Of a stretch of DNA of 22,248 bases, positions 1 through 15,334 are shown piece by piece. Made by a program: the position numbers and the translations under genes. Position 1 is the stretch's first letter. Each line of letters opens with the position of its first letter. The stretch comes from a virus (lineage: Duplodnaviria > Heunggongvirae > Uroviricota > Caudoviricetes). The notes beneath the pieces were generated by a model, which saw only the letters and a program-made list of their open reading frames with translations, did not search any database and was not told the DNA's origin. The DNA lies in the IMG/VR virus record IMGVR_UViG_2778261418_000019, positions 1-22,248 of that record. The stretch is one strand, 5' to 3'.

Positions 1-300
1 GTGCAATATATTAAACTAAGTGAATATAAATTATTTCATCGTTATGATTATGAAGGCGATGTATGTATTAATGTGTTTTCGAATATGGTGATTTATTTTG
101 ATGGCTATGACCGTGTTGTACTTGATCGTAGTACAAATACCTTCACGTATCAAAATATTGAAACTGCAACCCAACAAGAAATAGAAGATTACACTACCAT
201 CAAAGAAGAATTGATCTTCCAGTACAGCACACTGATTGACGTCGAGAAATACATCTCAATTCAAGAAGAAATGAAGAAACTAAACGATATGTACGAATAA
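1..300 (+). CDS. hypothetical protein (99 aa; may be 5'-truncated at window edge, GTG at position 1)
   Basis: ORF track; open frame ends TAA 298-300 and is followed by a hairpin at 303-325. No recognisable motif. Confidence 0.4.
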   Translation: MQYIKLSEYKLFHRYDYEGDVCINVFSNMVIYFDGYDRVVLDRSTNTFTYQNIETATQQEIEDYTTIKEELIFQYSTLIDVEKYISIQEEMKKLNDMYE

Positions 301-302
301 AA

Positions 303-325
303 AAGCCCACTTAATGTGGGCTTCA
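303..325. terminator. bidirectional intrinsic terminator-like hairpin (AGCCCAC-TTAA-GTGGGCT)
   Basis: Stem GCCCAC/GTGGGC with a 4-nt loop. An A-run lies on the 5' side on the + strand, so the minus-strand transcript sees a T-run (TTTTTTAT) after the hairpin; the + strand side is T-rich (TTCATTGTTTCATT). Confidence 0.55.
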
Positions 326-333
326 TTGTTTCA

Positions 334-516
334 TTATACGGCTTTTTCTACATGGTACGCGGCGAAGTGAAAGGAAGTAAATGTACCCGACGCTGCGTTA
401 TTCTTATGTACGGTACGGTATTTGTTATCCTCACCTTTTACTACTGCCCCCATATATACATCGTTAACCATGATATCAGTGATGTTACCGCGTTCTAAGT
501 AAGTTACTGTATTCAT
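334..516 (-). CDS. hypothetical small protein (about 60 aa from ATG at 516-514; ORF track extends to a TTG at 549)
   Basis: Only plausible minus-strand gene in the window. ATG at 516 is preceded on the minus strand by AAGGGA about 7 nt upstream, and the ORF ends at the bidirectional hairpin. The overlapping + strand ORF 316-498 starts inside the hairpin and lacks an RBS. Confidence 0.35.
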   Translation of the reverse strand: MNTVTYLERGNITDIMVNDVYMGAVVKGEDNKYRTVHKNNAASGTFTSFHFAAYHVEKAV

Positions 517-556
517 TATATATCCCTTCGTAGTAGTGTTTTGCTTCAATAAAGAC

Positions 557-584
557 AGTATACACTACCGTTAGTTACTATCAA
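557..584 (-). promoter_or_regulatory. candidate sigma70-like promoter for the minus-strand gene (TTGATA-N16-TATACT on minus strand)
   Basis: Read by eye on the reverse complement: -35 at 579-584, -10 at 557-562, 16-nt spacer. Confidence 0.3.
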
Positions 585-620
585 GTGTTTTCTACTAATA
601 AAATATTTTAGTAACTAGTG

Positions 621-649
621 TTGACGTTAGATACTAATGATCCTAGTAT
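621..649 (+). promoter_or_regulatory. candidate sigma70-like promoter (TTGACG-N17-TAGTAT) for the + strand small genes, overlapped by inverted repeats
   Basis: TTGACG 621-626, 17-nt spacer, TAGTAT 644-649. Inverted repeat GATACTA (630-636) / TAGTATC (644-650) overlaps the spacer and -10; a 9-bp inverted repeat TAGTTACTA (572-580) / TAGTAACTA (609-617) lies just upstream. Confidence 0.3.
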
Positions 650-678
650 CAGTGGTGTCAATACAACGAGGACACAAC

Positions 679-765
679 ATGACGTTCACTATCACTAAAG
701 AGCATGTACTATTTGTAGTCATCATAACCTTGTTACTAATCGTAGGGAGTATCGAAAATGTCTAA
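679..765 (+). CDS. putative 28-aa hydrophobic peptide (MTFTITKEHVLFVVIITLLLIVGSIENV)
   Basis: ATG 679 with GAGGA 6 nt upstream; single predicted membrane-spanning stretch; overlaps the next ORF by 8 nt. Below the ORF-track length cut-off. Confidence 0.25.
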   Translation: MTFTITKEHVLFVVIITLLLIVGSIENV

Positions 766-928
766 GGGTGTATCTACTGATTTGATCATTAAGGCACATG
801 ATTTAGGATTCAAGATTAACGAGATTGATAATCGTGTAACGGGAATGTTTCATATAGTAATTAGTTCCCGTCATAATGAGCGTGAATTATTCAGTATGTT
901 TCTTATGTCTGGTGGCTTGTTCCATTAG
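758..928 (+). CDS. hypothetical small protein (56 aa)
   Basis: ATG 758 preceded by GGGAG at 745-749; open to TAG 926-928. Not in the ORF track (under 60 aa). Confidence 0.4.
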   Translation: MSKGVSTDLIIKAHDLGFKINEIDNRVTGMFHIVISSRHNERELFSMFLMSGGLFH

Positions 929-1055
929 GAAAAGAACATCAATTTACCTAAGAGTGTAACCGATAAGATCACTATTGCCCGATTCGATGGTGAACGTGCT
1001 TTCACTTCATTACTAGAAGTAGTATCCGAAGAAATTACTAACGTACATTAATCAA

Positions 1056-1094
1056 TTAACACTACTAGTACATTTTCGGTACTAGTAGTGTTAA
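1056..1094. repeat. perfect 16-bp inverted repeat (TTAACACTACTAGTAC / GTACTAGTAGTGTTAA) with a 7-nt loop
   Basis: Directly verified: 1056-1071 is the exact reverse complement of 1079-1094; loop ATTTTCG. No T-run follows on either strand. Confidence 0.7.
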
Positions 1095-1106
1095 TATGGA
1101 CACTCT

Positions 1107-1208
1107 ATGAAAAAATTAACCTTTACTTACCTTGCGGCTGCAAATTTCTTTTTCTTCATTGCTGGGATCTTTACATGCGTATTAGTTGTATTGCTGGTGG
1201 ACTTATAA
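1107..1208 (+). CDS. putative 33-aa hydrophobic peptide (MKKLTFTYLAAANFFFFIAGIFTCVLVVLLVDL)
   Basis: ATG 1107 about 13 nt after the 16-bp hairpin; KK followed by an uninterrupted hydrophobic stretch; no clear SD. Alternative frame to the ORF-track ORF 1088-1372. Confidence 0.2.
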   Translation: MKKLTFTYLAAANFFFFIAGIFTCVLVVLLVDL

Positions 1209-1252
1209 CCGAAGTTTTCGACGATCACGACCGAAAGGTAGGGGCGGTCACT

Positions 1253-1372
1253 ATGTCTAAGCATCCCCTACACATCAATAAGCCTTTTAGTGATGGTAAG
1301 ACGTGGCACACTACCTATAACGAAGCACTATTGAACTTACTAACTAGAAAACGCGTGAACATTAAGCTATGA
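1253..1372 (+). CDS. hypothetical small protein (39 aa from ATG 1253; the same frame is open back to GTG 1088 and ATG 1175)
   Basis: ORF-track frame 1088-1372. The GTG start lies inside the hairpin arm, so an internal ATG is more plausible. Its stop overlaps the next start (ATGA at 1369-1372), suggesting translational coupling. Confidence 0.25.
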   Translation: MSKHPLHINKPFSDGKTWHTTYNEALLNLLTRKRVNIKL

Positions 1373-1590
1373 ATGATCTTAATGATCTAAACGTGCTCTA
1401 TATAGATACAGTACGAAAACTTACCGAAGAAGATCTACTACGTGATTTTGGTCTTACAAGTGAGATGATAAACACTTTGAAGGAGATCCCACTTGCAAAT
1501 ATAGGTAAACTAACCGAATGTACTCAGTTACTGTTAAAATCAAACGAGGCTGTACTATGGGAAGCATTAAAAGCATTACCGCAAAGATGA
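1369..1590 (+). CDS. hypothetical protein (73 aa)
   Basis: ORF track; ATG overlaps the upstream stop; no recognisable motif. Confidence 0.5.
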   Translation: MNDLNDLNVLYIDTVRKLTEEDLLRDFGLTSEMINTLKEIPLANIGKLTECTQLLLKSNEAVLWEALKALPQR

Positions 1591-2240
1591 TCAGTACGAT
1601 TCTTAATGATGATTTTCATGTAGGTATGTTGACTGCCGACGCAACAGGCCGCAATGCACTGGCAAACGTCAACGAAGAAGATATAGATACACTTATTCAA
1701 CGCCTGGAAGAAGTGAAAGACTATGTTAGTACACTTCGTACCGAGCGTATAAACGAAGCTAAGAAACTATTAGAATCACTTGTACAAGAGTCTGGTAGCT
1801 TCTCTAGTGTAGAGGAACTGCTTTCTACACTTGCCGTATCTTCTCCTGCTTCCATACCACAAAAAGCATCGAAGCCAAACGGCAATAAAATATTCGAAGT
1901 AGTCATAGTTGATAGCAAGAAGGACGAAAGAAGATCCTATAATGTAATCAATAAGAAGTTACCAGCGGCATTACTCAAGGATGAAGTATACATTCAGTTG
2001 GTTAAGAAGAATCCCGAACTATCAGACGTTGACGAGTTTTTACGGGCGTATAGTGAGGACTATCGCAAAAAATACCCGCTTAATGCGAAGTGGAACGGTC
2101 ATGAGTTCCATCTAAACCAGAAAGGGAAGATGAACGCGAAAGCACAGGAATACTACGCCGAGTACAAGAAGCAGTACCCCAAACAGGCCGACGAGCAAGA
2201 CTTCAAAGAGCTTGTTACTAAAGCCTATAAGGTAGCATAA
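1557..2240 (+). CDS. hypothetical protein, about 227 aa, with predicted coiled-coil N-terminal half and basic Lys/Tyr-rich C-terminus
   Basis: ORF track frame 1518-2240. ATG 1557 has GAGG 7 nt upstream, whereas 1518 is deep inside the preceding ORF. Followed by an 11-bp-stem hairpin. Confidence 0.55.
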   Translation: MGSIKSITAKMISTILNDDFHVGMLTADATGRNALANVNEEDIDTLIQRLEEVKDYVSTLRTERINEAKKLLESLVQESGSFSSVEELLSTLAVSSPASIPQKASKPNGNKIFEVVIVDSKKDERRSYNVINKKLPAALLKDEVYIQLVKKNPELSDVDEFLRAYSEDYRKKYPLNAKWNGHEFHLNQKGKMNAKAQEYYAEYKKQYPKQADEQDFKELVTKAYKVA

Positions 2241-2248
2241 GAAGAATA

Positions 2249-2279
2249 ATAGCTACTACACAGATAAAGTAGTAGCTAT
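2249..2279 (+). terminator. stem-loop (ATAGCTACTAC / GTAGTAGCTAT, 9-nt loop), possible terminator with weak U-tract
   Basis: Perfect 11-bp inverted repeat directly after the stop at 2240. Confidence 0.35.
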
Positions 2280-2348
2280 TACTAAATATCATAGCTATAA
2301 TAATTCACATCAAGCATCACTCCACACAATCACTAAAAGGAATTACTA

Positions 2349-2729
2349 ATGAAGCATCTCTTTGCCCTAGCTGTACTTGCTACTGCTACAATCACTACTG
2401 GCTGCACTACTACAATGCCTGCATTTATGAATGAAGCTGTAGTAGGTGATATTAACGGTCGTACACTAGTATTATTCCCCGTAAATGGTGGCAAAGAGTA
2501 TCGCCCACAATTCAGTAGTGATTGTCAGCCAATGCTATTAGGTGAAGAACGCCCATCTACTGGTAACTGTATTATTGCCGCCGCCCGCCTTACAAACATT
2601 CATAGCTACACCGAACATAAAGCCCACGGCCCCCACAAAAACACCACTAAGATAGTTGATCGTTCAAATAATTACGGTACAGAATTTGAGTTATCGAAAC
2701 CAACTAATTATATAGGCGATAATCTGTGA
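2349..2729 (+). CDS. predicted secreted protein or lipoprotein (126 aa; signal peptide ending ...ATITTG-C)
   Basis: AAAGGAA RBS 8 nt upstream; hydrophobic N-terminus MKHLFALAVLATATITTGC with Cys right after the h-region (relaxed lipobox); five Cys in the mature part. Confidence 0.6.
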   Translation: MKHLFALAVLATATITTGCTTTMPAFMNEAVVGDINGRTLVLFPVNGGKEYRPQFSSDCQPMLLGEERPSTGNCIIAAARLTNIHSYTEHKAHGPHKNTTKIVDRSNNYGTEFELSKPTNYIGDNL

Positions 2730-2818
2730 TGAAGAAAACAATATTTGCCGTACTTTTAGTTATGGGGACTGCATATTACTATGATATAATAAAATATATT
2801 AATCCCACTTATTAAATT
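2729..2818 (+). CDS. putative 29-aa membrane peptide (MKKTIFAVLLVMGTAYYYDIIKYINPTY)
   Basis: ATG overlaps the upstream stop (TGATG at 2727-2731); KK then hydrophobic stretch. Below the ORF-track cut-off. Confidence 0.25.
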
Positions 2819-2908
2819 GCAGTCGCCGTAATCAAAAACACTGTCATTATCTGGCATCAATAATGCCATTGATTCTGATAAAGTAGATAATCCCGAATGG
2901 ATGAATTT

Positions 2909-3289
2909 ATGAAAAAGATTGTACTGTCTGCATTACTGTTAGTAGCCCCTTCGGTACTGGCAGTAAATGTAATACTCCCTGATGATGGTCTGTATCGTTG
3001 CGGTGTTGAATCGTGGGAACAGGTAGGAAAGCGAGTAGTAAAGACTGGTTATTATGGTATGACTGGTTATGTGAGTATTGATAACCGTGCTGTTAGTGTG
3101 AAGTTTAGGGATGTGAATATTTCATTCAGCCCTGTTTCAAAACTTAAAAGCGGTCGCCTGATGGCCTATGCCGTAGATACTGACCAGTACGATATTATTA
3201 TTAGTGCAATCAATGGTAAAACACAGTATATGGTCAGCAATGAGAATAATCCCGTATTTTTGAACTTCTCCAATTGTATTATTGAATAA
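2909..3289 (+). CDS. secreted protein, paralog 1 (signal peptide MKKIVLSALLLVAPSVLA; ORF-track start is 2897)
   Basis: Signal peptide nearly identical to that of ORF 3299-3685; conserved LPxxGLYxC after the cleavage site and NC(I/V) near the C-terminus. Confidence 0.6.
   Translation: MKKIVLSALLLVAPSVLAVNVILPDDGLYRCGVESWEQVGKRVVKTGYYGMTGYVSIDNRAVSVKFRDVNISFSPVSKLKSGRLMAYAVDTDQYDIIISAINGKTQYMVSNENNPVFLNFSNCIIE

Positions 3290-11599: not shown

Positions 11600-15334
<3,735 letters not shown>

Follow-up and report, generated by a model that had tools for sequence, protein, structure and literature searches.

Phage morons, such as lambda bor and lom and those of HK97, are single small genes with a sigma-70-like promoter and an intrinsic terminator, which lie between operons in either orientation and are exchanged independently of their flanks. 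The immI region of phage P22 has mnt divergent from arc-ant, with operators between the promoters, among late genes, and both Mnt and Arc are ribbon-helix-helix (RHH) proteins. Lambdoid CI/Cro switches have divergent promoters with several palindromic operator copies in the spacer. We analysed a locus that can be set beside all three, in a 22,248-nt stretch of caudoviral DNA (IMG/VR record IMGVR_UViG_2778261418_000019, positions 1 to 22,248; hereafter the window). It consists of a minus-strand open reading frame (ORF) at 334-516, encoding 60 amino acids (aa), and of the promoter region with operator-like palindromes that separates this 60-aa gene from the rightward genes. The first 1,400 bases of the window are 99.9% identical to Escherichia coli isolate 02B21CPO003B, NZ_CM151386.1, in which the prophage is 33.2 kb long, has its insertion site at yegD and carries a large serine recombinase at its left end.

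The 60-aa gene shares with the morons its small size, its position between operons, its exchange independent of the flanks, and a sigma-70-like promoter and intrinsic terminator, here read from the sequence. Its composition is near that of its flanks (GC content 0.40 vs 0.31-0.36); the difference is slight and not diagnostic, and GC content was dropped as a sign of a foreign cassette. Classic morons need no repeated palindromes, whereas the spacer of the 60-aa gene has them and shares them with other prophage promoters.

As in P22 immI, a small gene is set against the surrounding genes near structural genes, and back-to-back promoters have short palindromic operators over their core elements. 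However, the 60-aa protein is predicted to be a beta-meander plus one helix and not an RHH protein. P22 immI also has an antirepressor; none was found after the rightward promoter here, and the only RHH-like candidate lies ~4 kb off beside the integrase. Compared with the lambdoid switches, the divergent promoters and several palindromic copies recur, and the operator sequences differ among related phages at the same position, resembling heteroimmunity. On the other hand, the prophage locus has no helix-turn-helix repressor, its first rightward gene encodes, in place of a Cro-like protein, a hydrophobic peptide of 28 aa, and gene and operators are not inherited together.

A hypothetical protein of Klebsiella phage vB_KM5a1-KLB5, MVRE005 (WYD67379.1), is 59% identical to the 60-aa protein. 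Its gene precedes a block of syntenic genes, from a ~240-aa coiled-coil protein to terminase, and has its own TTGACT-17-TATTAT promoter and flanking terminators. Unlike the window gene it is co-oriented with its neighbours, and the KLB5 phage has no integrase, carries its own primase and polymerase genes and has no TAGTnACTA sites.

The divergent promoters and their palindromes

The sequence features support a regulated divergent promoter node at this locus. The fuller reading that we prefer, and to which we give about an even chance, is that a moron-type gene shares an operator-bearing spacer with a promoter that restarts rightward transcription, and that the operators occur prophage-wide and are read by another regulator. 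The features are as follows.

302-324, no strand assigned: intrinsic-terminator hairpin common to the convergent plus-strand gene (1-300) and the 60-aa ORF
334-516 including the stop (61 codons), minus strand: 60-aa ORF, translation MNTVTYLERGNITDIMVNDVYMGAVVKGEDNKYRTVHKNNAASGTFTSFHFAAYHVEKAV
523-528, minus strand: Shine-Dalgarno-like AAGGGA, by direct reading, six nt upstream of the ATG of the 60-aa ORF
557-584, minus strand: P-minus, TTGATA-16-TATACT, sigma-70-like, matching 10/12 consensus positions, the best match in the first 3 kb
572-580, no strand assigned: O1, TAGTTACTA, 9-bp palindrome over the -35 hexamer and spacer of P-minus
609-617, no strand assigned: O2, TAGTAACTA, 9-bp palindrome 4 nt before the P-plus -35 hexamer, centred near -43
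621-649, plus strand: P-plus, TTGACG-17-TAGTAT, sigma-70-like, 9/12, predicted start near 656
628-636, no strand assigned: O3, TAGATACTA, one mismatch from TAGTnACTA, in the P-plus spacer beside the -35 hexamer
679-765, plus strand: 28-aa hydrophobic peptide, MTFTITKEHVLFVVIITLLLIVGSIENV, first gene of the rightward unit

The initial annotation had described the minus-strand ORF, back-to-back promoter-like hexamers and two inverted repeats interleaved with them, and all of these were found where it had placed them. The ORF is annotated by RefSeq/PGAP as WP_059330852.1 in NZ_CM151386.1. Both repeats are exact: the arms of the first, O1 and O2, are each a TAGTnACTA palindrome and are 100% complementary, and in the second the arm GATACTA (630-636), which overlaps O3, is exactly complementary to TAGTATC (644-650), the P-plus -10 hexamer plus one base. 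Everything else in the window lies on the plus strand, as had been said; across the whole prophage the plus strand carries all genes but ORF 334-516 and a glycoside hydrolase gene near the right end, outside the window.

On the preferred reading, a compact ~33 kb serine-integrase prophage would have a boundary and a control node at this locus. As read from the sequence, rightward transcription of the left-hand gene block stops at the hairpin 302-324. The leftward unit is self-contained, with the predicted promoter 584-557, a predicted start near 550, a 34-nt leader (5' untranslated region of ~34 nt), ORF 516-334 and the same hairpin with its U-tract. The predicted promoter P-plus restarts plus-strand transcription into the 28-aa membrane peptide and the small genes before terminase. 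The ~100-bp spacer between the predicted starts would then hold the three TAGTnACTA copies. As operators, these may be read by a dimeric DNA-binding protein that the prophage encodes, that also acts at further prophage promoters, and that probably silences or coordinates the sigma-70 promoters here in the lysogen. The 60-aa protein would most likely be a moron-type accessory product made from its own promoter, and not the operator-binding repressor. O1-O3 lie between both predicted starts, outside either transcript if the promoters are right, which argues for a function at the DNA level.

Conservation and recurrence give the palindromes real support beyond the repeat statistics. All three are perfect in the related prophage L011. 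O1 is also perfect in L013 and is lost in L003 and L012; O2 is conserved at 9/9 positions in L011 and degenerate in L003 and L012; and the O3 site is a perfect TAGTAACTA in L003, L012 and L011. The multiple operators over divergent promoters that characterize immunity switches would be represented by three TAGTnACTA sites, kept in L011 and L013. Between the window and L011, identity is 88% across positions 546-636 and 53% for third codon positions (Fisher p = 3e-6), compared with 73% over the 60-aa gene as a whole and 48% in the rightward leader (650-678). The position of P-minus is kept in L013 and L011 (TTGCTA-16-TATACT in L011), and both P-plus hexamers are kept in L003, L012 and L011, where 621-649 is 76-83% identical vs 48-66% for 650-678. 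We scanned 21 homologous loci (11 + 10) for promoters and terminators. A promoter-like match of at least 9/12 whose -10 element ends 32-55 nt before the ATG was found at 9 of the 21; matches of this score and placement are present in KLB5, L021, PCSE1, L029, L030 and L031.

The palindrome also recurs at other places in the prophage. Two of the three exact TAGTnACTA sites in the window fall in the divergent spacer of the 60-aa gene, and four of the six in the whole prophage fall within the 10% that is intergenic. Sites with at most one mismatch form three pairs at 19-20 bp spacing, all intergenic, an outcome seen in 0 of 20,000 random placements. The pairs are O2/O3, the window sites at 2250 and 2270, and two copies of TAGTAACTA before an 88-aa gene outside the window. 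Other motifs are repeated in the homologous spacers of other lineages: TAGCTA occurs seven times within 188 nt in L017 (of 13 copies in 6.2 kb) and twice in L027, and ATACCTG occurs twice each in L015 and L019.

The second pair belongs to the following element.

2248-2259 and 2269-2280, plus strand: perfect 12-bp inverted repeat, arms AATAGCTACTAC and GTAGTAGCTATT, near-sites at 2250 and 2270
-10 at 2296-2301, plus strand: TAGCTA-17-TATAAT, upstream of the lipoprotein gene 2349-2729

The product of 2349-2729 has 126 aa with a lipoprotein signal, MKHLFALAVLATATITTGC. The arms at 2248-2280 are kept in L017, with an arm spacing of 16 vs 20 bp, and a lipoprotein gene is found at the corresponding place there too. 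From its sequence, the element 2248-2301 is possibly a second member of the same regulon, or a second accessory unit under the same control. The third pair lies at L010 12120-12470 (NZ_CM151386.1 1842119-1842469), where the two exact copies, 20 bp apart, overlap a promoter-like TTGATT-17-AATAGT upstream of the 88-aa transmembrane/coiled-coil gene. This gene has weak holin-family matches, adjoins an endolysin-like gene and converges on the minus-strand glycoside hydrolase gene via a bidirectional terminator. A host TrpR operator (GTACTAGTTAACTAGTAC), suggested by ACTAGT motifs, was rejected, having no match at up to 3 mismatches anywhere in the window.

Several points weigh against the preferred reading. 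When the 162-nt spacer was shuffled by dinucleotides, 8% of the shuffles contained a perfect inverted repeat of at least 9 nt, so the 9-nt inverted repeat has no significance by itself. Three sites with at most one mismatch to TAGTnACTA appeared in 1.4% of the shuffles, for a motif that was defined after inspection of the data. Noncoding sequence is naturally richer in TAG and CTA, and the window holds 33 sites with at most one mismatch vs 14.6 expected for one 9-mer, a sign of a genome-wide TAGT/ACTA bias. Both promoters are predicted from their consensus matches, and sigma-70-like matches are not enriched in the first 3 kb (8 found vs 11 expected from shuffles). The 2248-2280 element could instead be an RNA hairpin (-16.5 kcal/mol), and its arm spacing varies between lineages.

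The shuffle frequency, the compositional bias and the lack of promoter enrichment would suit a simpler explanation, in which the 60-aa gene would be a plain moron with constitutive expression, and the palindromes would have arisen by chance from the composition of a spacer rich in AT and in TAG/CTA, with no operators and no regulation. The fact that lineage C, without O1 and O2, still keeps the gene points the same way. We consider this explanation quite unlikely in view of the identity of the core relative to synonymous positions, the three perfect sites in L011, the three intergenic pairs and the clustering of TAGCTA in the homologous spacer of L017.

The 60-aa gene and its product

We searched the 60-aa protein against Pfam, PHROGs, PADLOC and PDB sequences, and no match was found. 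It has 29 homologues, which are 38-93% identical to it and all lack a Pfam domain and an informative name; HMMER, run exhaustively on 1.8 billion representative proteins, gave two further small homologues only, plus repeat-protein noise. The ORF is under purifying selection, with a ratio of nonsynonymous to synonymous substitution (dN/dS) of 0.06-0.15, and of 0.06-0.10 against three relatives with dS up to 1.6.

The gene is organized as a separate unit in most of its relatives. Its reversed orientation, promoter-like upstream region and terminator are kept in at least seven related prophage lineages, and in 26-33 kb prophages and contigs it opposes both neighbours (L003-L008, L011-L013, L015, L017, L019 and L022-L028). 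An intrinsic terminator follows it at 17 of the 21 scanned loci, the exceptions being PCSE1 (a hairpin without U-tract), L021, L023 and L031. It is co-oriented with its neighbours in KLB5, in the KLB5-like L029 and L030, in L021 and in the ~69-kb phages (Salmonella phage PCSE1 and L031). KLB5, L029 and L030 have a terminator, then TTGACT-17-TATTAT (or TATATT), the gene and a second terminator, and L021, PCSE1 and L031 have a near-consensus promoter upstream of the gene. The gene neighbours differ among the serine-integrase prophages, the KLB5-like phages, the 69-kb phages and L021. As defined in PMC3594210, a moron is an independent transcriptional unit spread by horizontal transfer. The own promoter and terminator, the occurrence in either orientation and the varied neighbourhoods of the 60-aa gene fit this definition.

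The hairpin at 302-324 lies 9 nt beyond the end of the 60-aa ORF and has a 9-bp stem (-14.4 kcal/mol, z -3.9). Its minus-strand tail, UUUUUUAUU, has a U6 tract, in agreement with the T-run noted initially on that side, while the plus-strand tail is poor, just CAUUGUUUCA. The hairpin is therefore convincing as a terminator in one direction only, and the description of it as bidirectional is strong for the minus direction only. Among the relatives, L011 has at this place a single hairpin that is truly bidirectional, and L003 and L012 have two terminators back to back. An Rfam search of positions 1-3000 gave sub-threshold matches only, which reflect the terminator hairpin. A leader hairpin pairing 505-517 with 548-560, which would join the 5' end of the minus transcript to the start codon, was no better than shuffles (z -0.9) and was rejected.

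By sequence comparison, the gene and its control region recombine independently. Between the window and L013, the spacer and rightward genes are 98-100% identical and the gene 92% (dS 0.32), a step that places a recombination boundary at the start of the 60-aa gene. In lineage C the protein shares 90% identity with that of the window, but other sequence stands in place of O1, O2 and the leftward promoter segment; in lineage B the protein identity is only 77%, and all three operators are the same. Neither the similarity nor the phylogeny of the 60-aa protein tracks the operator type, and gene and operators are not co-inherited as one cassette in the manner of an immunity switch.

AlphaFold2 (28 sequences) gave a model of the 60-aa protein with a predicted local distance difference test score of 89; it has five strands, four of them long and the fifth short, and a helix at the C terminus. 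The fold is accordingly modelled as a probable four- or five-stranded beta-meander plus C-terminal helix. In Foldseek searches of PDB and BFVD with the model, no match fell below E = 1e-3, and the top viral matches were uncharacterised or DUF5348 proteins. No significant match to a known DNA-binding fold was found for the model, and the divergent gene is not recognisable as one that encodes a DNA-binding repressor of known fold as in immunity switches. The protein does not have the RHH layout (an N-terminal beta-strand and two helices in ~45-55 aa), and its net charge, by residue count, is about zero.

These results bear on the proposal of the initial annotation that the locus is a small switch or an autoregulated repressor. 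The conserved divergent-promoter node with operator-like palindromes was retained. The 60-aa product as (auto)repressor was not: it matches no DNA-binding family or fold, it has homologues without palindromes, and the operators are not inherited with it.

A version of the proposal can still be put forward, in which the 60-aa protein is an autoregulated repressor of new fold, its dimer binds TAGTnACTA and the locus is the immunity switch of the prophage family. O2 and O3 would shut P-plus, O1 would limit the protein's own promoter, and the lipoprotein and holin-like promoters would also be repressed. Regulators are usually encoded beside their operators, and the 60-aa gene is the only divergent gene there; no repressor, Cro, replication or excision genes were recognised among the prophage ORFs scanned with Pfam or PHROGs, and no CI/Cro-type or helix-turn-helix regulator was detected among them. 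Both observations count against the preferred reading and keep the repressor reading alive. Further in its favour, O1 overlaps the gene's own promoter, at least three operator "flavours" occur as repeated motifs always directly upstream of the 60-aa gene, and the site pair on the lysis side suits the needs of a maintenance repressor. However, the protein carries about no net charge, and its virulent-type homologues (KLB5, without integrase) are co-oriented with their neighbours behind plain promoters with no palindromes. The lineages also separate protein from operator in both directions: the A and C proteins are close with O1 and O2 replaced, and the A and B proteins are further apart with operators identical. 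The recombination boundary between gene and control region in the comparison with L013 points the same way. On balance we treat the autoregulated repressor as a tentative, minority possibility, and prefer the moron-type gene whose spacer operators are read by another regulator.

Rightward genes, candidate regulators and the prophage

The end of the 28-aa peptide gene overlaps the next ORF (758-928) by 8 nt, and the two are translationally coupled. The peptide has no RefSeq annotation; it is conserved in L003, L011, L012, L013 and L019, with dN/dS of 0.09-0.15. The ORFs that follow gave no regulator matches, a 73-aa ORF having only a sub-threshold match to FlhD (E = 0.027). ORF 758-928 (56 aa) looks truncated relative to a 76-aa homologue in L003, and is followed by ~160 nt without ORF (within 758-1087), so this may be a frameshifted or decaying gene.

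Purifying selection on the 28-aa peptide, and its place as divergent neighbour of the 60-aa gene in lineages A, B and C and in L019, would suit a toxin/antidote-like or membrane-acting pair of the two products, with the spacer balancing their expression. This pairing is not universal, the neighbour being a T4 Gp30.7-like protein in L015 and a 63-aa protein in L017, and KLB5 having neither. The 28-aa peptide is also coupled to a longer operon, and PADLOC gave no match for either protein. We regard such a pair as very improbable.

Further along the rightward unit, positions 1055-1095 form a 17-bp perfect inverted repeat (ATTAACACTACTAGTAC / GTACTAGTAGTGTTAAT, 7-nt loop; -23.6 kcal/mol, z -8.1) without U-tract, which overlaps the start codon (GTG) of ORF 1088-1372. 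Both arms include the palindrome TACTAGTA as well as TAGTAGTGTT, a string also present at 531-540. The repeat is absent from the relatives L003, L011, L012 and L017 and was rejected as a conserved operator.

RHH dimers read short palindromes, and one candidate protein of this kind is a possibility as the reader of TAGTnACTA, judged from its sequence. It is encoded outside the window with the following features.

L009 8357-8509, NZ_CM151386.1 1813547-1813699, adjoining the integrase gene, ~4 kb away: 50-aa candidate RHH gene, MKELKSHPVSVKLNDTQMKILEELIEGGKAKTKASALQYLINQYAILNSK
L009 8176-8205: extended -10 promoter, 11/12, before the 50-aa RHH-like gene

Orthologues of the 50-aa protein are present in lineages C (L003) and D (L017), and just three viral contigs carry it; in the sequences compared, lineages whose operators are of another type are truncated or do not contain it. 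Its RHH_1 match (E = 0.045) is below the Pfam cut-off and was obtained for one of the three orthologues only, and no TAGTnACTA was found at its own promoter. For these reasons it is weak as an alternative binder, which likewise counts against the preferred reading. In the region L009 7990-8509 the serine recombinase gene is followed by a terminator, a ~60-aa unannotated transmembrane ORF, the promoter, a hairpin and the RHH-like gene; in lineage C (L003), too, the recombinase gene is followed by the transmembrane ORF and the RHH-like gene.

A DNA search of phage records at near-identity gave no match with the window; it derives from a chromosomal prophage, which was found in E. coli genomes instead. 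The whole prophage has the following extent.

L009 6227 to L010 14641: whole prophage, 33.2 kb, AT-rich, splitting yegD

Its terminase, portal, capsid and tail genes are lambda-like, and of 5,426 complete E. coli genomes, 9 gave a match to it. The large terminase subunit is called as several fragments in lineage C assemblies, which points to decay or to errors in sequencing. The window has a tail-fibre-like gene at 11600-15334 with a product of 1,244 aa, located after the genes for head-tail joining and before that for the tail tube. The copy in NZ_CM151386.1 has 1,233 aa, so the window is not identical to NZ_CM151386.1 throughout.

Meaning for the prophage family

The locus adds to known classes, the moron and the divergent operator-controlled promoters, within a poorly described prophage family. 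To these it brings a conserved 9-bp palindrome at three intergenic regions and two small conserved genes, with a 90-bp control core that is constrained more strongly than the adjacent coding sequence.

What the 60-aa protein would mean depends on whether it binds the palindromes. It seems rather unlikely that it is the lysogeny or maintenance repressor of undescribed 26-33 kb Enterobacteriaceae serine-integrase prophages that lack a CI/Cro-type regulator, its dimer binding TAGTnACTA at its own, the rightward, the lipoprotein and the holin-like promoters. If it were, its fold would be new among DNA-binding proteins and the immunity switch a minimal one. Should another protein be the binder, it is one more uncharacterised moron or early gene of temperate and virulent enterobacterial phages.

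The prophage family is rare and almost entirely unannotated, and this locus is its clearest regulatory handle. The reader of TAGTnACTA, once identified, would show how compact one-strand prophages stay silent.

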